Positions 2,073 to 59,590 of a stretch of DNA of 64,000 nucleotides are shown here, in pieces. The notes beneath the pieces are model-generated. The model saw nothing but the letters and a program-made list of their open reading frames with translations, was not told where the DNA came from and did no database searches. Origin of the DNA: an uncultured Clostridia bacterium. Lineage in GTDB: Bacteria > Bacillota > Clostridia > Christensenellales > UBA1242. How positions within the stretch are numbered: position 1 is the first letter of the stretch; every line of letters begins with the position of its first letter. The DNA lies in the NCBI GenBank assembly GCA_944377165.1, contig CALWEJ010000001.1, forward strand, positions 43,490-107,489, read 5' to 3'. Both the position numbers and the translations under genes were made by a program.

Positions 2073-3599
2073 ATGCGCTCGTTTATTAAAGAAAGATGGT
2101 TTAATTATCGTCCGTTATCTATAATTATGGTATTCCTAGCACTAGGAAGTGTTTTTGCTTTTTATATAACAAACAATGTATTCATAACAATAATATGTAC
2201 AGTAGTTATTTTATCTCTATCAATTTTTATTGCGATATTAAAGAAAAAGATAAAATACTTTTTAATTCCTTTAATTTCATTTATCATAGGTATATCCGCT
2301 TATTTTATATCTATAAAGACATTTGAAACCGCGCCATTGCAAACACCTGATATTATAGAAGCGCGCATATATAGTGTAGATCAAGCAACAGACGGAAGAA
2401 TACGCGTGTATGCAGACAGTGTTAAATTCGATGACTCTAATCAAAATGCAAATGTGACAATATACATTTATGATTACACTAATATGTTTGAAGATATAGA
2501 AATAGGGTCAGTGATTAGATTTGAACCGATTAACGTATATAAATCAGATTTATTTTACTCTGGTATCCCTAATAGTTATACTTTTACGAACAATTTGAAA
2601 TATAGTATAACTGTTAATATAAGCAATATTGAATTAGTGCGAATAGATAAAACTTTTGCCGAGAAAATACGCGAATATATAAAGGAAAATTTACATAACG
2701 GGCTTACGAACGAAAACGTTGAGATTGCATATTCTGCACTATTTGGTGACAAAGCATTGCTTAGCGACGACCAATATGATGTCTATAGGTTAAGTGGTGT
2801 AGCGCATCTTCTTGCAGTATCTGGTTTGCACGTTGGAATAATTGTAGGTATAATCTATTGGATTTTAGATAGACTCAAGGTGAAAGGTTGGAAGCGCGTA
2901 ATAATTGTTGCTTTTATTTTGCTACTATATGCTTATATATGCGGATTTACTGTTTCGGTAGTTCGCGCGATGATAATGACCTTAGTTATGCTAATCGCAC
3001 CATTAATGTTCAGGCAATATGATAGTATTTCTTCTATTTCGCTAGCAGGTATAATCGTATATTTTATTAATCCTTTATCTGTTTTTGACGTTAGTACACT
3101 AATGAGTTTTTCTTGTGTGTTTGGAATTGCTTTGTTATATAGACCTATATTTAAGGCATTATTTAAAATAAAATTACCTAATATTTTATCTAAAAGTTTA
3201 GCAATGAGTTGTTCGACAACAGTCTCTCTAATTTTCATAATGGCATATTTCTTTAAAACATTTAATTTGATATCAGTTTTAGCTAATATTATATTGATAC
3301 CGTTGTTTACAATAGGCTTTACGATTGTTTTTGTACTGTCAATAATTTCGCTAATTGTCCCATTTATCACTTATTTATTAGTTGTAGTTAATCCAATATT
3401 TGACTTTATAAATTTAGTAGCAACAATTTTAGGTAATTTATCAATATCTAATTTTGAAACTATGAATATCAATTATATATCTATTTTCATTTATTTCTTT
3501 ATAATTATGTTAATTAGTCGTATGTGTACGGCGGAGAAAGAGCATAGAGTAATGATTTCGCTTCCTTTAGTTGCTTTGTTAGTGGTAAGTTTGGTATAA
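2073..3599 (+). CDS. comEC: ComEC/Rec2 family DNA-uptake channel protein (no C-terminal metallo-beta-lactamase domain)
   Basis: Carries the LSGVAHLLAVSGLHVGIIVG competence-domain signature and is polytopic. The ORF-track TTG at 2028 lies inside an extended -10 (TGCTATAAT), so ATG 2073 is preferred. Confidence 0.8.
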   Translation: MRSFIKERWFNYRPLSIIMVFLALGSVFAFYITNNVFITIICTVVILSLSIFIAILKKKIKYFLIPLISFIIGISAYFISIKTFETAPLQTPDIIEARIYSVDQATDGRIRVYADSVKFDDSNQNANVTIYIYDYTNMFEDIEIGSVIRFEPINVYKSDLFYSGIPNSYTFTNNLKYSITVNISNIELVRIDKTFAEKIREYIKENLHNGLTNENVEIAYSALFGDKALLSDDQYDVYRLSGVAHLLAVSGLHVGIIVGIIYWILDRLKVKGWKRVIIVAFILLLYAYICGFTVSVVRAMIMTLVMLIAPLMFRQYDSISSISLAGIIVYFINPLSVFDVSTLMSFSCVFGIALLYRPIFKALFKIKLPNILSKSLAMSCSTTVSLIFIMAYFFKTFNLISVLANIILIPLFTIGFTIVFVLSIISLIVPFITYLLVVVNPIFDFINLVATILGNLSISNFETMNINYISIFIYFFIIMLISRMCTAEKEHRVMISLPLVALLVVSLV

Positions 3600-3606
3600 T
3601 ATATAT

Positions 3607-4521
3607 ATGAAATTTATGGAATTGAACAAATCTTTAAAATCTGAAATTAAACCCTCATATAATTTAAAGGGGGAAGACCTCTTTCTTATTCAAACAGCAA
3701 TAAAAAATTTAAAATCAACCTTAGTGACCGATTTAGAAGAATTCAATTATATTAAATTGAATGGTGAAAAATTAAAGAGTGATGAATTATTATCGCAAAT
3801 AGCGACTTTACCTATAAACAGTGAACACAGAATGATTGTCGTAGATTGCCCTAGTAATGAAATTATAAAATTTTTAAATAAATATGAGTTTATCGACAAT
3901 TCATCAGTTGTAGTTTGTATTAATGCTGATAAACTTGAAAATGCTGAGAATGTCGATTGCTCGCATATCGAACGTGGAGATATTTCGAAATATGTGTTAA
4001 ATTATTTAAAAAAATACAATATTTCTATTCAAGAACAAGCGCTAGATTATATAATAGACGCAACAGGTGGAGATATGTCTAAAATTCATAATGAATTAGA
4101 AAAGTTATCTTCATATGCCTGCGATTCAAATATAATAGATTTAGATATGGCTACTAATTTAGTCGCTAATTCTACAGAGTATGCCATATTTATGCTGACT
4201 AGCGCTATTGATGAAAAGAATTTGACAAAATTTCAAACAATTTTATCAAGTATGTCTAAGTCAATAAGCCTACCAGATATATTCTCATATATGGGAAAAT
4301 ATTTTAGACGTATGCAATATATCGCTATGTCTAAGAATGACGAAGAATTAGCAAAAATTTTAAATATTAAACCATATGCGATTAAAATTTCGCGCGATTA
4401 TATTCGAAAAAATGGTATAAATTACTATATTAACCTTTATAAAAAATATATAGATTTAGACCAAGATATTAAATCAGGCAAAATAACCTCAACAAATGCT
4501 ATGTACAAGCTGGTGTTTTAA
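3607..4521 (+). CDS. holA: DNA polymerase III delta subunit
   Basis: Size, N-terminal pattern (YNLKGEDLFLI) and the conserved comEC-holA synteny. Confidence 0.75.
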   Translation: MKFMELNKSLKSEIKPSYNLKGEDLFLIQTAIKNLKSTLVTDLEEFNYIKLNGEKLKSDELLSQIATLPINSEHRMIVVDCPSNEIIKFLNKYEFIDNSSVVVCINADKLENAENVDCSHIERGDISKYVLNYLKKYNISIQEQALDYIIDATGGDMSKIHNELEKLSSYACDSNIIDLDMATNLVANSTEYAIFMLTSAIDEKNLTKFQTILSSMSKSISLPDIFSYMGKYFRRMQYIAMSKNDEELAKILNIKPYAIKISRDYIRKNGINYYINLYKKYIDLDQDIKSGKITSTNAMYKLVF

Positions 4522-4522
4522 A

Positions 4523-5188
4523 ATGGATTATAATTTATTAGTACCGTCAAAAATAGTCCGCTCTAAAAGGCACTCAATTTCTCTAATTATAAATAATAAT
4601 AATGAACTTATTGTAAGAGCACCATTAAAGTGCGCTGAGAAAGCTATTTATGATTTCATTTATCAAAAATCTGAATGGATAGTAAAGAAGAGAGCAGAAT
4701 TAAAATCTCATTCTTACGCTCCTTTAAAAGCTATTTCAGGCGAAAAAATACCTATTCTTGACAATATTTACGAAATAATGCTATATGATAAATCAAGGGT
4801 CAAACTAGTTAATAATATAATATACCTTCCAAAAGTAAATTCAAGTAAGAATTTATTATCATATATTAAAAAATTTACAAAAAACTACTTAGCTAAAAGG
4901 GTTGAAGAAATCGCAAAGACATTTAATTTTAAATATAAAGATATTAAAATTTCAAGTGCACGCACGAGATGGGGGTCTTGTAATTATTTAAATTCACTAA
5001 GTTTTACTTATAAATTAATTTTATGCCCTAAAACTGTTGTCGACTATATAATTATCCACGAGCTATCACATACGATAGAAAAAAATCATAGTAAAAAGTT
5101 TTGGAATAAAGTAAAAACGTGCTGTCCAAATTACAAAGAGAGCGAACATTGGCTCAAAGAAAATAGACAAATTATAAATTTGATATAA
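4523..5188 (+). CDS. YgjP-like (DUF45/M48-type) metal-dependent hydrolase
   Basis: HELSHTIEKNHSKKFW zinc-binding HExxH motif. ATG 4523 follows the holA stop directly. Confidence 0.7.
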   Translation: MDYNLLVPSKIVRSKRHSISLIINNNNELIVRAPLKCAEKAIYDFIYQKSEWIVKKRAELKSHSYAPLKAISGEKIPILDNIYEIMLYDKSRVKLVNNIIYLPKVNSSKNLLSYIKKFTKNYLAKRVEEIAKTFNFKYKDIKISSARTRWGSCNYLNSLSFTYKLILCPKTVVDYIIIHELSHTIEKNHSKKFWNKVKTCCPNYKESEHWLKENRQIINLI

Positions 5189-5193
5189 AAAAT

Positions 5194-5219
5194 AAAACAC
5201 CTAAATTTAGGTGTTTTTT
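5194..5219. terminator. bidirectional intrinsic terminator
   Basis: AAAACACCTAAATTTAGGTGTTTT hairpin flanked by A- and T-runs, between convergent genes. Confidence 0.6.
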
Positions 5220-5224
5220 CATTA

Positions 5225-5476
5225 CTATTTCTTATAACTGCTTAATCTAGCTTTCTTTCTATTAGCAGTCGCTTTTTGCAAAATGCCCTTAGAAACAGCT
5301 GAATCGATTAATGAGAATGTTTCACTAAGAATTGTAGAAGCATTTTCTTCTTTATTATCAACAGCATTTTTATACTTTTTAACAAAAGTAGCAATCTTTG
5401 TCTTATATGATTTATTTTCCATAGTTTGTCTGTCGATAACTTCGATACGTTTTTTAGCTGATTTAATATTAGCCAT
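5225..5476 (-). CDS. rpsT: 30S ribosomal protein S20
   Basis: MANIKSAKKRIEV.. N-terminus, with a GGAGG SD upstream of ATG 5476. Confidence 0.9.
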   Translation of the reverse strand: MANIKSAKKRIEVIDRQTMENKSYKTKIATFVKKYKNAVDNKEENASTILSETFSLIDSAVSKGILQKATANRKKARLSSYKK

Positions 5477-5497
5477 ACAAACCTCCATTTATGTAAA

Positions 5498-5526
5498 AGT
5501 ATAACAAACATTTTTTTAAATTGCAA
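5498..5526 (-). promoter_or_regulatory. sigma-A promoter of rpsT
   Basis: On the minus strand: TTGCAA-17-TATACT. Confidence 0.55.
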
Positions 5527-5615
5527 GTGCTTTCACGATATTTCTACAAAAATATTATCCTTTTTTTTTATTTTACATAGCACATTATTCAGACTTAATA
5601 AATAAATAGTTATAT

Positions 5616-6287
5616 ATGTTAAAAAAATTAAAGCCAACCATAGCGATTATTGATAGTGGTATAGGTGGGATTAGTATTTTAAAATCTTTAATTAAAGTTT
5701 TTAAAGCTGGGAATTTTATATATTTTGCTGATAACCTATATATGCCATATGGTATGCGTTCAAAACGATTTGTTCATAATAGGGTAGATTATTTAATACA
5801 TATGTTAAGAGAAAAGTACCAAGCAGATATTATAATTATCGCTTGCAACACTGCCTCATCAGCTATAAACTACAAAGATTACGAAAATGTTTATGCAATG
5901 CAATTTAACGATAACAGCACCTATCTTGCAACTTTTTTAACAAAGAAAAACAAGCCCAACTTAGATGTTATTGCTGATAAGTCACTAGCAAAATTAATTG
6001 AAAAAAACATATTTGATAAATCTGAAATTGATAAGATTATAAAGTTGCACATAAATAAATATCATTTAAACGAATTAAAAGAAATAGTTTTAGGTTGTAC
6101 TCATTATGAATTGGTGGCGGATATATTCAAAAAATACTGCCCTAATACTAACATTATAAAAAATAGCGAGTATATGTTGAAAAATATAATTTATGAGCCT
6201 AGAGATAACTTCATTACAATAAAATTTTTAATGAGTAAAGATAGCGAAAGTTATTATACAAAATTATTAAAATTGATAGGGAGATAA
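5616..6287 (+). CDS. murI: glutamate racemase
   Basis: IAIIDSGIGG, ACNTAS and GCTHY motifs. Confidence 0.85.
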   Translation: MLKKLKPTIAIIDSGIGGISILKSLIKVFKAGNFIYFADNLYMPYGMRSKRFVHNRVDYLIHMLREKYQADIIIIACNTASSAINYKDYENVYAMQFNDNSTYLATFLTKKNKPNLDVIADKSLAKLIEKNIFDKSEIDKIIKLHINKYHLNELKEIVLGCTHYELVADIFKKYCPNTNIIKNSEYMLKNIIYEPRDNFITIKFLMSKDSESYYTKLLKLIGR

Positions 6288-6288
6288 T

Positions 6289-7971
6289 ATGTGTGGTATT
6301 TTTGGTTTTATCGGTAAAAGTAAAGCATACGAAAAAGTATTTAATGGATTGAAATTATTACAATACCGCGGATATGATTCGTGCGGTATAGCATATTATG
6401 AAGATAATGAATTTAAATTAAATAAAGCTATTGGCGTACTAGATAATTTGGAGCATATAGATACTAAATCTAATATTGTTTTTGGACATACGCGCTGGGC
6501 GACTAACGGCGAAGTCAATTTAACGAATACTCACCCACATATTAGTTTTGATGAAAATTTTACGATTGTTCATAATGGGATTATAACAAATGCAGAAATT
6601 ATAAAAAACAACTTGAAAAAAAGCGGAATATCATTTAAAACAAGTACTGATACCGAAGTCATTGCAAACGTTCTAGCAAGTTTAAAGGGAGATATTGATA
6701 GCAGCGTAAAGAAGTTGTTTTCAATTCTTGACGGCTCATTCTCTTTGATTATAGGCTATAGTGACGGAACATTATACCTAGTTAAACATTTTAGTCCACT
6801 TAATTTATTAAAGGCAAGTGACGGAATATATATATCTAGCGACGTATCAAGTCTTAAACAAGGTGAGTTGTATTGTCTTAATGATGGCGATGTTATAAAA
6901 ATTAAAGATAATATTATAACTAATATAACAAACGGCGAAATGACTTTCATTAAACACGAGAATACAATCAAAGCATTAAGTCTTCACGGATACAATCATT
7001 TTATGATAAAAGAGATTAATGAAACTCCTAATTCTATAAAGCAAACATATAACTATCTTTTAAACATAAATACAAATAAAATATTCAAGAAATTTAAAAA
7101 ATTAACATTTATAGGTTGCGGTACAGCATATCACTCGTGTTTAATAGGGAAATGGTTTTTCAATAAGTTAGATAAATATGATTGCAAGAGTGAACTAGCT
7201 TCTAATTACACTATAAATAGAAAGGTTAAAAAATCACACTTACATATAATAGTCACACAAAGCGGAGAGACTGCTGACTGCATTAAGGTAGCTGAATCTA
7301 TTAAAGAGAATAAAGGTAATATACTAATAATAACTAATGAGAAGTCTAGTACTATAACAAAATATGCCGATTATTTAATACTAACTAAAGCGAACAAAGA
7401 ATTAGCCGTCGCTAGTACTAAAACATATTGCTGTCAAATATTTGTATTTGCCGTTATAATTAATCGTCTAATGAACAAGAATTTTAAATTAAATATAGAC
7501 AAATTAACCGAAAAATTGATTAATTTCATTAATTCTCTTGATTTAAATGTTCTCGCTGAAACTCTAGTAAATACTACTAATATGATATTAATAGGTAAAG
7601 ATATTGATTACATTACATTATTAGAAGCGAGTTTAAAAATACGTGAATTAGATTATATTTATACAATACCTATGTATTCGGGCGAATTAAAACACGGCAC
7701 ATTGTCACTAATAGATAGTAATAGTGTCATTTTATCACTTAACACGAGTGAAGATAAAAATAAATTAAATACAGTAATTAATGAAATTTCATCAAGGGGT
7801 GGTAAAGTAATAGATATGTCGGAATATTTGCGTAAGGTGGCGGTTAATGAATATTTTAAGCCAATATTTAGTATAATTCCTTTTCAATTCTTAAGTTATC
7901 ATATAGCGCAAAAACGCGGATATAATCCTGATATGCCGAGAAATTTAGCAAAGAGTGTGACTGTAGAGTAG
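6289..7971 (+). CDS. glmS: glutamine--fructose-6-phosphate aminotransferase
   Basis: MCGIFG N-terminal nucleophile, SIS domains and a C-terminal ..LAKSVTVE. At 560 aa it is somewhat short. Confidence 0.9.
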   Translation: MCGIFGFIGKSKAYEKVFNGLKLLQYRGYDSCGIAYYEDNEFKLNKAIGVLDNLEHIDTKSNIVFGHTRWATNGEVNLTNTHPHISFDENFTIVHNGIITNAEIIKNNLKKSGISFKTSTDTEVIANVLASLKGDIDSSVKKLFSILDGSFSLIIGYSDGTLYLVKHFSPLNLLKASDGIYISSDVSSLKQGELYCLNDGDVIKIKDNIITNITNGEMTFIKHENTIKALSLHGYNHFMIKEINETPNSIKQTYNYLLNINTNKIFKKFKKLTFIGCGTAYHSCLIGKWFFNKLDKYDCKSELASNYTINRKVKKSHLHIIVTQSGETADCIKVAESIKENKGNILIITNEKSSTITKYADYLILTKANKELAVASTKTYCCQIFVFAVIINRLMNKNFKLNIDKLTEKLINFINSLDLNVLAETLVNTTNMILIGKDIDYITLLEASLKIRELDYIYTIPMYSGELKHGTLSLIDSNSVILSLNTSEDKNKLNTVINEISSRGGKVIDMSEYLRKVAVNEYFKPIFSIIPFQFLSYHIAQKRGYNPDMPRNLAKSVTVE

Positions 7972-7972
7972 C

Positions 7973-10240
7973 TTAGACGAGCCAACGTTTTTTGCCAGAT
8001 AGAAATTCGTTATTTAACAAATTGATTAAATAATCTTTAGGTCTAATTACCACATTATTTGAACAATTTTCTCCTTCAATAATGTAATACGATATCTCGT
8101 CATAATTATATATATCTTTATCTTCTATTTCTATTGTACCCACATTATCTTTAACAGTGCCTAAAAGGGAGGTAGAGTCTTTTATCTGTTTATAGATATA
8201 ATATTTTTTGTATTTATCTGCATTAAACGTTAATTTAGCTGATTTTCTATCGATACTCACTTCTAATTCTATATTTTCAGCGCTATCAATCACTATAGGT
8301 TTGTTATCTAGTTTAAAATAGTCGTATGCTATGTATCTATCTATGTCGTGATTAGGGGCAACTACTCTATGATTCTTTTCTAGTTCATTTAAGTCATACG
8401 CGAACTTCTCAACTGAATTTGGCTTTATAAAATCATTTGGTTTATTATCTTTATAAATACAAGATAAAATTCGTTTTGTAATCTCGGTTGGTTGCGCGGA
8501 ACTATATAGTCCATCAGGCAAAGCATTATCTTTAATATTAGCAACCCACGTTAGAGTGGTGTAGTCAGTAGTGTATGAAATATTATATAAATCTGTATTA
8601 TTAGTTCCATTAGTCGCCGTACCTGTTTTACTAGCTACTGGTATATTTAATGAATTCAAGCGCCTTGCTGTACCGGATTTAGCTACATCTTTTAACATAT
8701 CTGTTAAAATAAATGCATCTGCTTCATCAATTATTCTTTCTTGGAAATCTTCTTCTTTATATATAATGTTTCCGTCTTTATCTAAAATTTTATCTACAAA
8801 AGAAATAGGGCGATATATCCCACCATTTGCAATGATATTATATGCTGAAACTAGTTGCATTAAACTTATACCGCGATACGTAGAACCTAAAGCAAGCGAC
8901 ATATTCATATCACTATTATCTAAATAAATTCCTAGTCTTGATAAAATTTCTCTCGAATTTTTCAGTCCGACAGTATCTAACAATTTTACAGCAGGAATAT
9001 TATATGAATATTTCAAAGCATCTCTTGCGCTTACATATCCGTGAAATTTATTGTCTGCATTTTTAGGAGAATATCCATTATAATTTATTTCTTCATCTAA
9101 AATTTGAGAAGCAGGTTGCAATATATTGTGTATTAAACAAGGAAGATACACTGCTAATGGCTTTAAAGTAGAGGCAGGTTGCCTTTTCATATTATGAATA
9201 TCATAGTTGCTATTTACATAATATGCTTTAACTTCACCTGTATTTGATACCAATATTGATACACTATCTAAATTATTTGATAAATATGCTGATTCTTCTA
9301 TAACATCGTTATTAGCATTCATCACTATTTCTTGCAATAAATCGTCTTTATTTGTAATAATTTGATATTCTTTATTGATTAGTTCCCTTTCACTAATATT
9401 CAATAATGAACACGCCTCTAAAATTGCTTCTTTTTCATATGAATGGTTTGATTCATTGTTTTTTATAGTAATAATCGGTTGTGAAATAATATCTTCGTAT
9501 TCACTTTCATTAATATCTTTGCAATCTAACATTGTTTTAGCGACAAAATTTCGGCGTGCTATTGCATTATCATAATTCAATATTGGAGAATATCTTGCAG
9601 GCGATTTTATAATCCCTGCTAAACAACAAGCTTCATTAATAGTTAAATCTTTTGCAGGTTTGTCAAAATAAATTCTACTTGCATTTTCGATTCCATATGC
9701 GTTTGCACCAAAATAAATAGTATTTAAATACATCGCTAAAATTTCATCTTTACTGAATTCTTTTTCCATTTTTACAGATAAAACAATTTCTTCCAACTTT
9801 CTTTGATAAGTTTTTTCATTAGAAAGCAGTGCATTTTTGATTAATTGCTGACTTATCGTTGAAGCACCTTGTGATTTCGAGCGAGTAGTAATATTAACTA
9901 ATCCAGCTTTTATTATTCGTTTAAGGTCATAACCATTGTGCGAATAAAAATGTTTGTCTTCTACATCAATAAATGCTTTAGGCACATAATCAGGCAAACT
10001 ATCAAGTTTTACAATAGAGCGGTTAGTGTTGTAAAGGGTAGATTCTTTACCGGTAGAAGAATATATAACTACACCATTATTCACACTTGTTAGAGTGTCA
10101 ACATCTAGGTCATATTTATTGTAAAAATATGTAATTAGTAAAAAAATGGATAAAAATAAAACGGCAATTAAAATACTAATTGTCAAAAGTATTTTTTTTA
10201 TTTTCTTATTTTGTTTAGTTCTACGCTCTTTAATCATCAA
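7973..10240 (-). CDS. class A penicillin-binding protein (glycosyltransferase + transpeptidase)
   Basis: EDKHFYSHNGYD and ISQQLIKN (GT51 domain), STLKP (SxxK) and KTGT motifs. N-terminal membrane anchor. Confidence 0.85.
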   Translation of the reverse strand: MMIKERRTKQNKKIKKILLTISILIAVLFLSIFLLITYFYNKYDLDVDTLTSVNNGVVIYSSTGKESTLYNTNRSIVKLDSLPDYVPKAFIDVEDKHFYSHNGYDLKRIIKAGLVNITTRSKSQGASTISQQLIKNALLSNEKTYQRKLEEIVLSVKMEKEFSKDEILAMYLNTIYFGANAYGIENASRIYFDKPAKDLTINEACCLAGIIKSPARYSPILNYDNAIARRNFVAKTMLDCKDINESEYEDIISQPIITIKNNESNHSYEKEAILEACSLLNISERELINKEYQIITNKDDLLQEIVMNANNDVIEESAYLSNNLDSVSILVSNTGEVKAYYVNSNYDIHNMKRQPASTLKPLAVYLPCLIHNILQPASQILDEEINYNGYSPKNADNKFHGYVSARDALKYSYNIPAVKLLDTVGLKNSREILSRLGIYLDNSDMNMSLALGSTYRGISLMQLVSAYNIIANGGIYRPISFVDKILDKDGNIIYKEEDFQERIIDEADAFILTDMLKDVAKSGTARRLNSLNIPVASKTGTATNGTNNTDLYNISYTTDYTTLTWVANIKDNALPDGLYSSAQPTEITKRILSCIYKDNKPNDFIKPNSVEKFAYDLNELEKNHRVVAPNHDIDRYIAYDYFKLDNKPIVIDSAENIELEVSIDRKSAKLTFNADKYKKYYIYKQIKDSTSLLGTVKDNVGTIEIEDKDIYNYDEISYYIIEGENCSNNVVIRPKDYLINLLNNEFLSGKKRWLV

Positions 10241-17109: not shown

Positions 17110-18334
17110 AAAATTGTTAGATTTAGTAAATAATGCTGAGAAAAAATTAAGCGATAGTTTTAAAGAAATCGAAGAAATTGAATTTAAAAATCAATTAAAA
17201 GTTCTAAATGCATTTAATTCGAATCATATTCAGTCTTACCATTTTATAGGTAGTACAGGATATGGACATAATGATGTAGGAAAAGAGAAAATATCTGACG
17301 TTTTCGCTTCAGTTTTTCATACCGAATCTGCCTTTGTTAGTCCGCTAATAAGTTGTGGAACAGAGGCAATAAGTCAAGCACTTTTAGGTATATTGCGCCC
17401 TAAAGATAATATGCTATGCGTTTCTGGCACACCATATGATACCCTAAAAAAGGTCATATATGGAGTAGAAGGGAAAGATGTTGGTTCTTTGAAAGATTAT
17501 AATATTGGTTATAATGAGGTCGAATTAGTAAATAATGATTTTAATATTCCTGAGATTTTAAAGTCAATTAAAAATTATAATCCAAAAATCATATACATAC
17601 AACGTTCAAGAGGATATTCTTTACGAAACGCAATTACCATTTCTCAGATAGAAAAACTGATTAAATCAATTCGTCCCTTTACAAAAGCATATGTAGTAGT
17701 AGATAATTGCTATGGTGAATTTACTGAAGATAGAGAACCTACCGATGTTGGAGCAGATTTAGTTATCGGTTCACTACTTAAAAATATGGGTGGTGGTATT
17801 GCCCCAACTGGTGGCTATTTAGCTGGTAAAAAGGATTTAATAGAACTAATATCGTATAAACTTACAAGTCCAGCTTTAAGCACTGACACAGGTTCTTATG
17901 AGCCGGGGTATAAGCTATTTTTCGAAGGATTGTTTTTATCTCCACACGTGGTCGCTGAAAGTAAAAAGTTAGTAAAATTAACCTCAATGTGTTTAGCAAA
18001 ATTAGGCTATAAAACCATACCAAATATAAAGCAACCATTAAGTGATATAGTATGTACAATAGAATTTAACGATAAAAATAAGCTTATAAATTTCGCACGC
18101 GCGATACAATCTGCAAGTGCTATAGATAGTGATTCTGTTCTAGAAGCGGGAGAGATGGACGGATACGAAGACTTAATTATTATGGCAAGCGGAAGCTTTA
18201 ATCAGGGTAGTAGCATTGAATTAAGTTGTGATGGTCCAATGCGTGAGCCATATGCTGGATTTATACAGGGCTGTTTAACATATCAACACGGTAAAATAGG
18301 GTTAATTAATGCACTAAGTACTCTTGCGAAATAA
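17093..18334 (+). CDS. methionine gamma-lyase family (aluminium-resistance/YnbB-like) PLP protein
   Basis: Conserved position after miaA in Firmicutes, with family-like N-terminus and size. Confidence 0.7.
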   Translation: MITIDKKLLDLVNNAEKKLSDSFKEIEEIEFKNQLKVLNAFNSNHIQSYHFIGSTGYGHNDVGKEKISDVFASVFHTESAFVSPLISCGTEAISQALLGILRPKDNMLCVSGTPYDTLKKVIYGVEGKDVGSLKDYNIGYNEVELVNNDFNIPEILKSIKNYNPKIIYIQRSRGYSLRNAITISQIEKLIKSIRPFTKAYVVVDNCYGEFTEDREPTDVGADLVIGSLLKNMGGGIAPTGGYLAGKKDLIELISYKLTSPALSTDTGSYEPGYKLFFEGLFLSPHVVAESKKLVKLTSMCLAKLGYKTIPNIKQPLSDIVCTIEFNDKNKLINFARAIQSASAIDSDSVLEAGEMDGYEDLIIMASGSFNQGSSIELSCDGPMREPYAGFIQGCLTYQHGKIGLINALSTLAK

Positions 18335-18631
18335 GAAAGTATTTAATTAGATGCTTTTTTTATGCAAGTAATATGCTTTTTTGTTAGTACATATTTAGTA
18401 CATTCATAACTTCAAAAACTTTTATTTTAAAATATACATTCAAGATTTGTATAATAACAATAAAAGGTATTTAATAAACCTTTACAGATTAACAGATGAG
18501 ATTAGAAAAATGCAAAATTCATCACAATATTACTATGCTAAAAACTAATATAAACTAATAAATATAGGGTAGAGATAACAAAAAATAACCAATATAATGA
18601 AATTTAAGCAAAGAATATCTTATAATAGCCT

Positions 18632-18815
18632 TGTGGAAAAATATAGAGTGGGGCAAAAATCTATACATATATCTTTGCGCAAAACTCTTCTTTTGCGCAA
18701 AGATATTATCATTTTGAGCTAAAATCCTGTGGAAATGCCATTTTTTATCCACAAATATCAAATTATTATTTTTCTTCTGACATTATTCGGCAATATTTAT
18801 ATCTAATTGTCCACA
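18632..18815. promoter_or_regulatory. cluster of four DnaA-box-like 9-mers
   Basis: TGTGGAAAA 18632-18640 (1 mismatch, reverse). TGTGGAAAT 18728-18736 (2 mismatches, reverse). TTATCCACA 18745-18753 (perfect). TTGTCCACA 18807-18815 (1 mismatch). Confidence 0.45.
18669..18706. repeat. perfect palindrome: 16-nt inverted arms around a 6-nt spacer
   Basis: ATATCTTTGCGCAAAA-CTCTTC-TTTTGCGCAAAGATAT, read directly from the sequence. Confidence 0.95.
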
Positions 18816-19126
18816 TATTAATTTTAATGAATTTTTGCTAAATATCTTTATATAACACCTTAGATTATTTTTATAATATTACTGTCAATGAAATCTGCTA
18901 TTTGATATTTTTTTTAATAATCCTTCATCTAAATTAATTCCAATTCGTCTGAGCGCAGATTAGACGAACTACTTAATTTACTAATAGTTGTTTTGCTACC
19001 GTTTCAGTTAAAATAAAATCGAATAATTCAATTTGTTAATTGAATAACTATATTCTTAATTATATTATGACAGTATCACACTCACTTAGTTATCTGAATA
19101 TGTCAAATTATATGTTATAAGATTAT

Positions 19127-19155
19127 ATTTTATCAAATTTGTATCTTTGCGTAAA
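19127..19155 (-). promoter_or_regulatory. orphan promoter-like element pointing into the ORF-free spacer
   Basis: On the minus strand: TTTACG-17-TAAAAT with a TGA extended -10. The -35 lies inside the arm-motif copy. Confidence 0.35.
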
Positions 19156-19157
19156 AA
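19143..19157 (+). repeat. single copy of the palindrome arm (ATCTTTGCGTAAAAA)
   Basis: Matches the 18671-18684 arm 13 of 14, and the reverse complement of 20692-20706 15 of 15. Confidence 0.85.
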
Positions 19158-19223
19158 CATAAATTAACAGAATTAAAACTAATCTATAATTGATTTATCT
19201 TTTTATATTATTATCTTGCCAAT

Positions 19224-19257
19224 AAAAAATCATAAGCTATAAAACTTATGGTTTTTT
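19224..19257 (-). terminator. serS intrinsic terminator (bidirectional shape)
   Basis: CATAAG-8 nt-CTTATG stem flanked by A- and T-runs. Confidence 0.55.
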
Positions 19258-19289
19258 ATAAATTTATTAAAATTTATACTAATTATAAA

Positions 19290-20576
19290 TTACTTTTTAG
19301 GCTTTATTACCTTAGTTCCGCCCATATATGGCCATAAAACTTCTGGTATAGTCACACTCCCATCTGCTTGCAAATGATTTTCTACAAAGGCAATTAACAT
19401 TCTAGGCGGTGCTACAACCGTATTATTTAATGTATGCGCAAATACATTACCTTTATCTGTTTTATATCTTATACCTAATCTTCTAGCTTGAGCATCTGTT
19501 AGGTTGCTACACGAACCAACTTCAAAATATTTCTTTTGTCTAGGGCTCCACGCCTCTACATCTAAGCTCCTATATTTTAAATCTGCTAAATCACCAGAAC
19601 AACATATTAAAGTTCTCACGGGAATTTCCATTGATACGAATAATTCTACAGTGTAATTCCACATTTTTTCGTACCAACTATCACTTTCTTCAGGATTGCA
19701 AATTACAATCATTTCTTGCTTTTCGAATTGATGGATTCTGTATATGCCACGTTCTTCTATTCCGTGCGCTCCCTTCTCTTTTCTAAAACAAGGACTATAC
19801 GAAGTCAAAGTAATCGGCAATTTATCTTCAGGGATAATTGTATCCATAAAGCGACCTATCATACTATGCTCACTTGTACCGATGAGATAAAGGTCTTCAC
19901 CTTCTATTTTATACATCATATTGCCCATTTCTTCAAAGCTCATAACACCTTCAACGACACTTCCGTGAATCATAAATGGCGGTATAACATATGTGAATCC
20001 TTTATTAATCATAAAGTCACGTGCGTAAGCTAAAACTGCACTGTGCAAGCGGGCAATGTCTCCTGTTAAATAATAGAAACCTTGACCAGAAGTACGTCTA
20101 GCACTATCGACATCTATACCATCGAGTTTTTCTAAAATCTCAGTATGATAAGGCACTTCAAATTCAGGGACTTTAGGCTCTAAAAACGTTTGTGCTTGAA
20201 TATTAAATTTGTCGTCTGGTCCAATCGGCACATCGTCTGCAATAATATTTGGAATGCTCATCATATCGCGTTTGATGTTTGCGTCAAGTTCGCTAACCTC
20301 TTTTTCAATACTTGAAATACGCTCATTATTAGCGACAACTTCTGCCTTTATTTTATTCGCCTCATCTACGCGCTTTTGTTTCATTAGCATACCGATTTCA
20401 GTAGAAAGAGTATTTCTTTTTGCTCTTAAATCATCTCCTTCCTTTTTGAGTGCACGAACCTTTACGTCCATTTCTATAACGTCGTCAACTAAGTGAAGTT
20501 TATGGTCTTGAAACTTCTTTTTAATATTCTCTTTTACTTTATCAGGATTATTTCTTAAAAAATTAATGTCTATCAT
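19290..20576 (-). CDS. serS: serine--tRNA ligase
   Basis: Coiled-coil N-terminal arm and class II motifs (..FRKEKGAHG.. , ..LNNTVVAPPR..). Confidence 0.95.
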   Translation of the reverse strand: MIDINFLRNNPDKVKENIKKKFQDHKLHLVDDVIEMDVKVRALKKEGDDLRAKRNTLSTEIGMLMKQKRVDEANKIKAEVVANNERISSIEKEVSELDANIKRDMMSIPNIIADDVPIGPDDKFNIQAQTFLEPKVPEFEVPYHTEILEKLDGIDVDSARRTSGQGFYYLTGDIARLHSAVLAYARDFMINKGFTYVIPPFMIHGSVVEGVMSFEEMGNMMYKIEGEDLYLIGTSEHSMIGRFMDTIIPEDKLPITLTSYSPCFRKEKGAHGIEERGIYRIHQFEKQEMIVICNPEESDSWYEKMWNYTVELFVSMEIPVRTLICCSGDLADLKYRSLDVEAWSPRQKKYFEVGSCSNLTDAQARRLGIRYKTDKGNVFAHTLNNTVVAPPRMLIAFVENHLQADGSVTIPEVLWPYMGGTKVIKPKK

Positions 20577-20602
20577 AAATACCTCTATTTAATATGCTTA
20601 AT

Positions 20603-20631
20603 ATTATATCAAATTAAAATAAATTTTGCAA
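20603..20631 (-). promoter_or_regulatory. sigma-A promoter of serS
   Basis: On the minus strand: TTGCAA-17-TATAAT with a TGA extended -10. A short leader carries an AGAGG SD, leaving no room for a T-box. Confidence 0.6.
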
Positions 20632-20687
20632 CAAAATAAAATTTCATATCAAAAATTTATTATTTATTATAATTGAATTAAATTTGC

Positions 20688-20716
20688 TTGTTTTTTACGC
20701 AAAGATTTGATAATAT
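20688..20716 (+). promoter_or_regulatory. promoter of the Xer-like recombinase (leaderless geometry)
   Basis: TTGTTT-17-TAATAT, ending 6 nt before ATG 20723. No SD. The spacer is filled by the arm motif. Confidence 0.45.
20692..20706 (-). repeat. single copy of the palindrome arm (inverted relative to 19143-19157)
   Basis: TTTTTACGCAAAGAT is the reverse complement of ATCTTTGCGTAAAAA. Confidence 0.85.
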
Positions 20717-20722
20717 ATTAAT

Positions 20723-21775
20723 ATGTCAACAAATTATTATTTAGATAGAAATAGAAATAATATGAGAAAATTAAATGAAATGCTAACTGATTTACCTGCA
20801 TTTTGTTCAATATTTTTCATAGGAATACAAGATACAACTACTCCACTCACACGACTTAATTATGCAGTAGATATAAAGACCTTCTTCACATATTTAACTA
20901 CATATGAACAAAAATTTGTCAATCGTGATATAAAATCTATTACACTTGCTGATATAGATGGAATTGATGCTCAATGTATTGAACGATATATGGCATCTCT
21001 ATCCTACTATGACAAAGATGATGGAAAAATATTAACAAATGGCGAACGTGGTAAACTTAGAAAGCTATCTTCTCTAAGGGCGTTTTTCAAATACTTTTTC
21101 AATAAAGATATGTTAAAAGCTAACGTTGCAAGCAAGGTAGCTAGCCCTAAATTACACGAAAAACCAATTATTAGACTTGAAGCACAAGAAACCGCTGAAT
21201 TAATGTATTCGTGTGATACATTATCCGGATTTAGTGAGCATCAAAAAAAATATAACGAAAAATTTAAAATTCGCGATAATGCTATATTATCCCTATTTTT
21301 GACCACAGGAATTCGTGTAAGTGAATGCGTTGGATTAAATGTTGATGATATAAACTTTAATCTTAATTCATTTCGAGTGACACGAAAAGGTGGCAATCAA
21401 GTTATATTATATTTTGGAGAAGAAACCGCTGATGCTCTAAAAAAATATCTCTCATATAGAGAAACATTAAATCTACCAAAAGAAGAAAAAGCGCTATTTA
21501 TTTCAAGTCAAGGTAAGCGAATGATGGTTAGAGCAATGGAATATCTAGTAAAAAAATATGCTAAAATTGCTACTCCACTTAAACATATTACTCCGCATAA
21601 ATTACGTTCAACTTATGGCACTAACTTATACAATGAAACAAAGGATATTTATATAGTTGCTGAAGTTTTAGGTCATAAAGATGTAAATACTACTAAAAAA
21701 CACTACGCAGCAATAAGCGATGACGTTAGACGTTCCGTAGCAGGCAAAGTTAAATTAAATAATGACAATATGTAG
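20723..21775 (+). CDS. tyrosine site-specific recombinase, Xer-like (350 aa)
   Basis: Catalytic signature: TGIRVSE (Arg), VTRKGG (beta-hairpin Lys), HKLRSTY (HxxR), LGHKDVNTTKKHY (His..Tyr). No phage genes flank it. Confidence 0.8.
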   Translation: MSTNYYLDRNRNNMRKLNEMLTDLPAFCSIFFIGIQDTTTPLTRLNYAVDIKTFFTYLTTYEQKFVNRDIKSITLADIDGIDAQCIERYMASLSYYDKDDGKILTNGERGKLRKLSSLRAFFKYFFNKDMLKANVASKVASPKLHEKPIIRLEAQETAELMYSCDTLSGFSEHQKKYNEKFKIRDNAILSLFLTTGIRVSECVGLNVDDINFNLNSFRVTRKGGNQVILYFGEETADALKKYLSYRETLNLPKEEKALFISSQGKRMMVRAMEYLVKKYAKIATPLKHITPHKLRSTYGTNLYNETKDIYIVAEVLGHKDVNTTKKHYAAISDDVRRSVAGKVKLNNDNM

Positions 21776-21892
21776 TGTATTACGCGTATTATATACAATA
21801 CATATTGTTAAATTATTTGAATCATATCTAAAAAATAAATTTATTCAGTTTCCAATTTTTTATAAAAGATGTTTTATTTATATTACCTTTAT

Positions 21893-21930
21893 CGAACAAA
21901 TGTTTGAAAAATGTTTGACAAATGTTTGAA
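21893..21930 (+). promoter_or_regulatory. LexA operator (Cheo-type box) extended by three tandem 11-bp AAATGTTTGA(A/C) units
   Basis: CGAACAAATGTTTG at 21893-21906 compares with the Firmicutes consensus CGAACnnnnGTTCG. The repeat units are at 21898, 21909 and 21920. Confidence 0.6.
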
Positions 21931-21943
21931 AATATGATAACTT
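21915..21943 (+). promoter_or_regulatory. sigma-A promoter of lexA
   Basis: TTGACA-17-TAACTT preceded by TGA. The -35 is formed by repeat unit 2. Confidence 0.5.
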
Positions 21944-21960
21944 TACACTAGGAGATATTT

Positions 21961-22545
21961 ATGAATAATACGCAAAAGACTTATGATTTCATAATGGATT
22001 TTATGAAAAAAAATAATTACCCCCCTACTATTCGTGAAATTTGTTCTAGTTTGAATTTTGATTCAACTTCTAGTGCTATGTATCATTTAAAAAAACTTGA
22101 AAAAGAAGGAAAAATTACTAGAAATTATAATAAAAATCGTGCAATAGAATTAACGGATAATGCACAGCCTCATATTACTCTACCAATTATTGGTACGATT
22201 GCAGCAGGTACTCCCATCTTAGCAGAAGAAAATCTTATTGACAAAATGATAGTAAACGAAAACCTATTTACAGGGACAAATATGTTTGTTCTACAAGTCA
22301 AAGGTGATAGTATGATTAACGTAGGTATATATGACGGAGATTATGTGGTAATTTCAAAACAATCCGTAGCTAATAATGGCGAGATAGTAGCCTGTCTAAT
22401 TGATAATGAAGCTACTGTAAAACGTTATTATAAAGAAAATGGCTACTTTAGATTGCAACCTGAGAATTCTTTTATGCGCCCTATAATAACCGACCACTTA
22501 GATATTTTAGGAAAAGTTGTAGGCTTAATACGAAACAAATTTTAA
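21961..22545 (+). CDS. lexA: SOS repressor LexA
   Basis: wHTH N-terminus, an AAG cleavage region (IGTIAAGTPI), Ser (VKGDSM) and Lys (TVKRY) of the S24 dyad. Confidence 0.95.
   Translation: MNNTQKTYDFIMDFMKKNNYPPTIREICSSLNFDSTSSAMYHLKKLEKEGKITRNYNKNRAIELTDNAQPHITLPIIGTIAAGTPILAEENLIDKMIVNENLFTGTNMFVLQVKGDSMINVGIYDGDYVVISKQSVANNGEIVACLIDNEATVKRYYKENGYFRLQPENSFMRPIITDHLDILGKVVGLIRNKF

Positions 22546-58459: not shown

Positions 58460-59590
<1,131 letters not shown>

Follow-up and report, generated by a model that had tools for sequence, protein, structure and literature searches.

Why should a seryl-tRNA synthetase gene (serS) be flanked by an exact inverted repeat, immediately beside a gene for a tyrosine recombinase? 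This is the question raised by a locus in a 64-kb stretch of DNA from an uncultured Clostridia bacterium of the Christensenellales (contig CALWEJ010000001.1; the whole stretch of 64,000 nucleotides is hereafter called the window). A sequence-only reading of the window had described the two repeats as diverged copies of the recombinase promoter region and had offered three interpretations: an invertible segment, the scar of an inversion or of an insertion into a dif-like site, or duplicated operators that titrate a regulator. The source organism belongs to the Christensenellales and resembles Candidatus Onthoplasma. We compared 80 related loci, one genome per species, with recombinase identities of 51–91%; all conclusions rest on sequence comparison. 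We consider it probable that the repeated 14–15-mer is the DNA-binding arm of a single-recombinase Xer/dif system, in which the two copies beside serS, here called L and R, would be solitary arms. A palindrome farther to the left, P, is likely to behave as a used Xer/dif-type site in the style of the known sites difSL and difH, with the 350-aa XerS-like recombinase as its enzyme. The features on which this argument turns are the following.

18669–18706, no strand assigned: P, complete dif-type core site ATATCTTTGCGCAAAA-CTCTTC-TTTTGCGCAAAGATAT, with perfect 16-nt inverted arms
19143–19157, plus strand: L, solitary arm (half-site) ATCTTTGCGTAAAAA, the left copy of the sequence-only reading
20692–20706, minus strand: R, solitary arm (half-site), reading TTTTTACGCAAAGAT on the plus strand, the right copy, inside the recombinase promoter
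19290–20576, minus strand: serS, seryl-tRNA synthetase (TIGR00414, 402 bits)
20723–21775, plus strand: 350-aa Xer-type tyrosine recombinase, XerS-like, presumed enzyme for P (NCBIfam, Pfam and structure alignment)

The repeat itself was examined at the level of its letters, which agree with those quoted before: ATGTTTTTACGCAAAGATACAAATTTGATAAAAT is read on the minus strand at 19160–19127 and TTGTTTTTTACGCAAAGATTTGATAATAT on the plus strand at 20688–20716. The 15-nt core that they share is real and forms an exact inverted repeat, ATCTTTGCGTAAAAA at 19143–19157 and TTTTTACGCAAAGAT at 20692–20706. Of the 30–45 bp claimed for each repeat this core stood, but the outer similarity did not: it is not conserved across species, and the information profile limits cross-species conservation of the motif to about 14–19 nt. 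A count of exact matches to the 14-mer ATCTTTGCGYAAAA over the 64 kb gave four against 0.01 expected, all of them within 2 kb, and none of 100 shuffled windows reached four. Because of this excess, and because the motif recurs 14/14 at equivalent positions in about 45 species, the inverted repeat around serS is not due to chance. In these species the motif is kept while the intergenic DNA around it is barely alignable.

Two of the four copies had been noticed previously, both of them genuine; the other two had been missed, and they form P. Also written ATATCTTTGCGCAAAA-CTCTTC-TTTTGCGCAAAGAT(AT), P is a perfect 16-6-16 palindrome built on these extra copies of the 14-mer, with 14-nt arms at 18671–18684 and 18691–18704 and an asymmetric 6-bp central region at 18685–18690. 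It is intergenic, lies 440 bp left of L and 2 kb from the recombinase gene, and is conserved in 31 species. The suggestion of a dif-like site was thus sound in direction but misplaced, since the dif-like site is P and not the copies on either side of serS. Each of the latter is one arm only: the cross-species information profile shows no second arm conserved beside either L or R. Of the three interpretations first offered, duplicated operators come closest.

P lies at the point where the strand composition of the window turns over. The cumulative G−C maximum, computed over the 64 kb examined, falls at 18653, a distance of 16 bp from P; GC skew changes from positive on the left of P to negative on its right, and genes converge on the region. 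On the left, mutL, miaA and a gene for a pyridoxal phosphate (PLP) enzyme are encoded on the plus strand. On the right, the plus strand carries the recombinase gene, lexA, a PadR-family gene and an ABC transporter; beyond them comes an extended series of genes on the minus strand. Such a pattern at P is typical of a replication terminus rather than an origin.

The evidence that P is a site in use comes from prophages. A contig from another sample of the same species (L092), whose recombinase is 100% identical, carries 5.38 kb of DNA inserted exactly at P (L092 positions 2562–7972). The insert encodes a Microviridae capsid protein F, a scaffold protein, Rep and an XRE repressor, and is without an integrase; its major capsid protein is 62–64% identical to those of gut microvirus genomes of 5.2–5.6 kb. 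At the left junction (attL), ATCTTTGCGCAAAA-CCCTTC-CTTTACGCAAAAAT, the left arm of the host is joined to a degenerate right arm of the phage, and the right junction (attR) is an intact P. In two sister contigs (L091 and L093) the site is empty. L008 and L061 contain further microvirus prophages directly beside P. In L061, which is from a distant clade, the arm of the phage, AAATATTCACAAAA, mimics the dif variant of that clade, and the flank on the right is identical to the empty site of L071. L061 also seems to hold tandem prophage copies. Of five metagenome contigs that hold P, three have a microvirus prophage beside it. Related microviruses in IMG/VR, whether free or proviral, carry P-like sites, for example AACTTTGCGTAAAA-caatac-TTTTACGCAAAGTG, and the attP of the microvirus is predicted to read ..TTTATACATAT-ATCTTTGCGCAAAA-CYCTTC-CTTTACGCAAAAAT-TATTC... 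As a side observation, integrase-less, gokushovirus-like Microviridae prophages of about 5.4 kb also occupy a dif-like site in L220–L222 and L206.

The L092 prophage has the properties by which integrative mobile elements exploiting Xer recombination (IMEX) are recognised: it has no integrase of its own, it has a dif-like attP, and it is inserted at the host site with dif-like repeats on either side. Because integrase-less prophages sit exactly at P with hybrid junctions, P can be regarded as a used Xer/dif-type site; they are indirect evidence that site-specific recombination occurs there, presumably through the XerS-like recombinase. The exact phage attL/attP sequence had no match in IMG/VR or in JGI metagenomes. 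A scan of IMG/VR with the 16-mer arm gave 46 matches, mostly attributable to chance, with a full site in L128 only. This IMG/VR entry of 12,997 bp, unrelated to microviruses, has a near-complete site, TATCTTTGCGTAAAA-caagtg-TTTCGCGCATAGAT, on its minus strand near 10023, and possibly represents a further element exploiting the same recombination system.

The site may also reach beyond its arms, as a conserved stretch adjoins P on the left.

18632–18668, plus strand: conserved left flank of P, TGTGGAAAA..AGAGTGGGGCA..TATACATAT, with genus consensus TGTGGA..taGGG.aGTG..TTaTAt.CAT

This flank may be an accessory part of the site, and in distant clades, too, a GGGG box is present left of P. The phage side of the right junction in L092 (ttgtggatagggaagtgtgc..tttatacatat; 7879–7938) was compared with window positions 18632–18668 and with L008 positions 3800–3859, and it is similar to the left flank that the chromosomal site has in several species. 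The similarity points to a functional site reaching about 55 bp farther left, or else to an exchange of this flank between phage and host.

The presumed enzyme was then characterized. The best NCBIfam match of the recombinase is XerS (NF003462, 1.1e-51, 175.7 bits), covering profile positions 4–355 of 360, although by the equivalog criterion of NF003462 the protein is XerS-like and not an XerS orthologue. Its Pfam match is PF00589, and the closest solved structure is XerD, with which it shares the catalytic set: R198, K222, H292, R295 and H318 align to XerD R148, K172, H244, R247 and H270, and Y328 falls one column off XerD Y279. The catalytic R-K-H-R-H-Y residues are invariant in 23 homologues. 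The reading frame starts at 20723, 7 nt after 20716 as the sequence-only reading had placed it, and the N-terminus is conserved from Met1. The locus shows several of the features that define a single-recombinase Xer/dif module: the catalytic set, a noncoding core site with inverted arms, a terminus position within the 64 kb examined, and linkage of site and gene.

R occupies the promoter of this gene, which was delimited as follows.

20688–20716, plus strand: putative recombinase promoter, with −35 element TTGTTT at 20688–20693 and a 17-nt spacer holding R
20708–20709 and 20711–20716, plus strand: downstream part of the putative recombinase promoter, TG and −10 element TAATAT respectively, ending 7 nt before the ATG

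The promoter geometry proposed for the right copy was borne out in 41 species, in which the motif lies between a −35 element (TTGTTT) and an extended −10 element (TGnTAtAAT); the consensus of the 41 R copies reads TTtGTT-TTTTACGCAAAGAT-aTg.TAtAAT on the plus strand. R thereby fills the spacer and part of the −35 element of an extended −10 promoter, 30–270 nt upstream of the recombinase start. The distance from motif to ATG is 30 nt in eight other species, as it is here, and the others have a longer leader. Because the ATG lies 7 nt past the end of the −10 element and conservation of the N-terminus begins at Met1, the recombinase mRNA is probably leaderless in this genome, and likewise in the eight species of equal spacing.

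The arrangement was then compared across the related loci. In about 45 species (Ca. Onthoplasma, Christensenellales), at 79–91% recombinase identity, the order is constantly mutL-miaA-PLP enzyme gene, P, L, serS on the minus strand, R, recombinase gene on the plus strand, and lexA. Relatives at 51–64% recombinase identity, with GC contents of 26–55%, have a 14-6-14 palindrome 0.06–3 kb upstream of the gene, of the form A[ACT][CT]TATTCGCAAAA-N6-TTTTGCGAATA..; in a genome of 55% GC it reads ATCTATTCGAAAAA-CTTGTC-TTTTCCGAATAGAT. The palindrome is directly upstream of the recombinase gene, at 60–140 bp, in L042, L044, L060 and L223, and likewise directly in front of it in L224; the distance is 1–3 kb in most other clades. 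In one distant clade an extra single arm, ACTATTCGCAAAATA, abuts the −35 element TTGACA of the recombinase gene. Since distant relatives have the palindrome near the gene and one clade has a single arm at the −35 element, the combination of a full palindromic site with an arm at the recombinase promoter is old. The arm sequence drifts together with the recombinase lineage.

Two well-studied single-recombinase systems offer points of comparison. The XerS/difSL system of streptococci and lactococci (Le Bourgeois 2007, PMC1914069; Nolivos 2010, PMC2965235) is similar in having one recombinase of about 350–356 aa linked to a terminus site with arms of the ..CGAAAA/TTTTC.. style, and XerS is the best NCBIfam match of the window recombinase over its full length. 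It differs in that difSL is asymmetric, 31 bp long, with a reported 11-bp central region (PMC5357621), and abuts xerS, whereas P has perfectly symmetric 14-mer arms and a 6-bp spacer and, in this genus, lies 2 kb from the gene; moreover, unlike difSL, the present locus has one solitary arm in the recombinase promoter and another nearby. The XerH/difH system of Helicobacter and Campylobacter (Carnoy & Roten 2009, PMC2731167; Bebel 2016, PMC5241119) likewise combines a single recombinase with a 6-bp central region. The arms of difH are near-identical and inverted, with inner AAAA/TTTT (for example GTATTGAAAA-CTATAA-TTTTCAAAT), and the site, close to the skew peak, is in many cases adjacent to the gene; the inner ..AAAA-N6-TTTT.. 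style is that of both difSL and difH (PMC5357621; PMC2731167, Table 2). The relationship to XerH is nevertheless distant (E 2.6e-09 to 5JJV, weaker than to XerD), and the arm sequence here differs from the difH arm (TTTGCGCAAAA). To our knowledge, solitary arms in promoters have not been described for XerH.

Both systems provide precedents for a functional half-site. XerS binds one half-site of difSL preferentially (PMC2965235), which is a case of a single arm bound by a monomer, and in 2007 difSL, next to xerS, was proposed to mediate autoregulation (PMC1914069). For XerH, the dissociation constant on a single arm is about 180 nM, and a palindromic left-arm site recombines better than the wild-type site (PMC5241119). 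The prophages at P also have a close counterpart in known IMEX, in which integrase-less Microviridae with a dif-like attP occupy the host site: as in L092, the insert is 5.4 kb long and is bounded by one host-like and one hybrid, degenerate site. Gokushovirus prophages integrate at dif through the host XerCD (Kirchberger & Ochman 2020, PMC7062461), and proviruses of Bacteroidetes show the same integration pattern (Krupovic & Forterre 2011, PMC3091885). The known cases differ in that they involve XerC/XerD and a canonical 28-bp dif in Enterobacteria or Bacteroidetes, whereas the host here belongs to the Clostridia and has a palindrome of difSL/difH style beside a single XerS-like gene.

The mechanism that we propose from these comparisons is as follows. 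Each P would be occupied by two monomers of the 350-aa recombinase; after synapsis of two sister P sites, chromosome dimers would be resolved through strand exchange in the central 6 bp. Dependence on FtsK and on chromosome dimers is a further property expected of a module of this type. Integrase-less microviruses would hijack the same reaction to lysogenise. As R lies in the spacer and the −35 element of the recombinase promoter, a monomer bound there would hinder RNA polymerase, and the recombinase gene would be subject to negative autoregulation; R is probably an autoregulatory operator. The motif would in each case be bound by this recombinase rather than by another protein. L, if it is active, could be a co-regulated promoter, a decoy arm or an accessory arm.

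L calls for separate treatment, for its relation to serS and to promoters differs from that of R. The segment at L contains promoter-like sequence on the minus strand.

19107–19155, minus strand: two overlapping left-facing promoter-like sites beside or over L, from a consensus scan only

The first is TTTACG-17-TAAAAT with a TG (19155–19127), and the second, with a score of 11/12, is TTGATA-18-TATAAT (19136–19107). The left-facing site points into DNA without a reading frame, as had been stated before: no conserved open reading frame (ORF) was found between P and L on either strand. The promoter geometry attributed to both copies holds at R; at L the elements have no conserved spacing across species. 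The arm itself is nevertheless kept 14/14 in about 35 species, in the '>' orientation, 310–1011 bp right of P. In one clade a 359-aa ORF separates L from serS and L remains with P, which argues that L belongs to the P region and stays with dif rather than with serS. The bracketing of serS by L and R is incidental. Extra solitary arms were also observed in some species, as pairs about 40 bp apart and symmetric around P (< < [> <] > >), namely in L018 (5780–6523), L027 (253–1109) and L043 (5208–5885).

These extra copies raise the alternative that L and its like are functionless scars of phage integration and excision at dif, with only P and R functional. Integration duplicates the site, the extra copies vary from zero to four by species and are often symmetric around P, as in L018, L027 and L043, and the promoter elements at L are poorly conserved, all of which this explanation would accommodate. 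Against it, 14/14 conservation of L in about 35 species with flanks that are not conserved indicates purifying selection on the arm itself, and the side and orientation of L relative to P are constant among related species. We regard the scar explanation as unlikely, and L is treated here as a solitary arm of the Xer/dif system.

Several observations weigh against the Xer/dif interpretation as a whole. The recombinase score of 175.7 bits is below the 267-bit cut-off of NF003462. In four species R is flipped and lies just upstream of a TTGACA −35 element, and the promoter-like elements at L have no fixed spacing across species. In some species both arms of P have changed in concert (for example TTTTCGCAAAA/TTTTGCGAAAA) while L and R of the genomes concerned keep TTTGCGT, and such joint change could fit a hairpin constraint rather than protein recognition. 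The arm also holds a dyad of its own, TTTGCGCAAA, which would equally suit a dimeric transcription factor. Finally, xerC/xerD genes and a canonical dif may exist elsewhere in the genome, the search for a canonical dif having covered the window, and the material as a whole the window and loci of ±10 kb. Within these 64 kb, matches to a canonical XerCD-type dif occurred at chance level only, the best of them inside the tgt gene, and no second recombinase was noticed within the window. One sequence in tgt, TTAGGGTAAAACGTATATTATGTAAACT at 58549–58576 on the plus strand, contains the 15-mer TATATTATGTAAACT, which matches the XerD side of the Bacillus subtilis dif site; since it lies inside coding sequence, 40 kb from the skew peak, we judged this match coincidental.

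The internal dyad leads to a second alternative, in which the motif would be the operator of an unlinked dimeric transcription factor controlling both the recombinase gene and a left-facing promoter; P would then be no recombination site but a hairpin or a double operator. The copies do lie on or beside promoter elements, and where they stand with respect to the promoter differs by lineage, as this explanation would allow. However, a 14-6-14 arrangement with an asymmetric spacer is the architecture of a tyrosine-recombinase core site, and the palindrome stays linked to the recombinase gene across 51–91% identity and 26–55% GC. An unlinked regulator would also leave the position of P at the skew maximum unexplained, together with the insertion of integrase-less phages exactly there, by exchange within the site that leaves hybrid arms. 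An operator of this kind therefore seems improbable to us, and the Xer/dif interpretation is retained.

An invertible cassette, in which the recombinase would flip the 1.5-kb segment between L and R as a phase-variable switch, is suggested by the exact 15-nt inverted repeat that flanks serS beside a tyrosine recombinase gene, and it recalls invertible switches such as fimS with FimB/FimE, where short inverted repeats likewise flank a segment next to such a gene. The orientation of serS speaks against it. Synteny demonstrated that serS is never inverted: it lies on the strand opposite the recombinase gene in every related locus that holds serS, about 55 species, 45 of them with the motif, and also in the 10 same-species contigs shown of the 21 read, with the limit that these are consensus assemblies, in which a rare inversion would escape. 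Unlike the repeats of fimS, L and R are half-sites, single arms without a conserved second arm or spacer, and their relative orientation is not conserved, being direct in four species (L010, L012, L041 and L046). The 359-aa ORF lies between L and serS in one clade, and the segment carries an essential housekeeping gene with its own promoter, the flipping of which would have no evident use. We consider an invertible cassette highly improbable.

Hardly any credence can be given to P as an intrinsic terminator that acts in both directions between serS and the convergent PLP-enzyme gene and is unrelated to the other copies: a pattern scan flags P as terminator-like on the plus strand and its arms covary, but no T-run directly follows the stem, conservation across an order extends to the sequence and not to pairing alone, the 14-mer is found again at L and R, and prophages insert at P.

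As a single-recombinase Xer/dif system, the locus has implications for both host and phage. XerS-type systems have been regarded as a hallmark of Streptococcaceae, and a search of the literature available to us found no paper on a single-recombinase Xer system in Clostridia; a module of this kind in Christensenellales, a prominent group of uncultured gut Clostridia, is apparently undescribed. The 34-bp palindrome could serve as a simple marker of the replication terminus in these metagenome-assembled genomes. Insertion at P would explain how gut microviruses can lysogenise Firmicutes-type hosts and would link phages to their host: prophages at P would give gut microviruses a Christensenellales host and a lysogenic lifestyle. 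It has long been proposed that a Xer recombinase controls its own gene by way of a copy of its binding arm, and the locus would also provide a natural test of this idea. Since the operator arm is physically apart from the recombination site, the recombination and operator functions would be separately mutable.

The remaining intergenic features concern the region between P and serS and the neighbouring genes.

18729–18737, plus strand: DnaA-box-like sequence right of P, TGTGGAAAT
18745–18753, minus strand: DnaA-box-like sequence right of P, TGTGGATAA
18807–18815, minus strand: DnaA-box-like sequence right of P, TGTGGACAA
18917–18965, minus strand: noncoding module of about 60 nt, ..ATGCGCTSAGACGAATT..GATGAnnAATTGGTCATC.. 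(nhmmer)
Near 20603–20631, minus strand: promoter-like site of serS itself, TTGCAA-17-TATAAT (consensus scan)

A further DnaA-box-like sequence lies left of P at 18632–18640 on the plus strand, and one pair forms an inverted repeat, TGTGGAAAT-N8-TTATCCACA. Exact matches to TGTGGAYAA number two in the 64 kb, both in this cluster, and the boxes are conserved in the genus. An interpretation of the boxes as oriC was rejected, as the skew polarity and the convergent genes indicate a terminus, and an iteron or Rep-type origin was dropped, because the gene linked to the site encodes a Xer-type recombinase and phages use the site for attachment. KOPS-like (FtsK-orienting polar sequence) polarity, taken from GGGNAG and GAAGAAG, switches at P, but so do other purine-rich words, and the switch is not specific.

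The module of about 60 nt occurs in 1–5 tandem copies (for example in L012, L017, L032 and L046), only between P and L and on one strand, in more than 30 species. It contains no ORF, has no Rfam match, and shows no convincing covariation or RNA structure; its plus strand resembles two weak hairpins followed by T-runs. Rfam gave nothing in 18300–19320, either at gathering thresholds (applied to the whole window) or at E≤1 (applied to 18300–19320), and in particular no T-box and no small RNA.

A broader scheme, in which L and the mirrored extra arms would be recombinase-controlled promoters firing into dif from the flanks, would join recombinase, dif occupancy and transcription in one circuit. 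We offer it as a speculation with little probability. Such a circuit would set the timing of dimer resolution or limit the integration and excision of microviruses, and the DnaA-box-like cluster and the module of about 60 nt would tie it to the replication cycle.

Two observations concern the flanking genes. The serS leader (20577–20722) is short and has no Rfam match to a T-box element, which is unusual for a Firmicutes aminoacyl-tRNA synthetase gene. On the other side, lexA is the gene immediately after the recombinase gene in almost all relatives, as far as those at 51% identity. Its position in the window is 21961–22545, and it is preceded at 21885–21932 by two LexA-box-like repeats (CGAACAAATGTTTG and the repeat ACAAATGTTTGAAAA); the Xer-type gene and the gene for the SOS repressor LexA form a conserved pairing.

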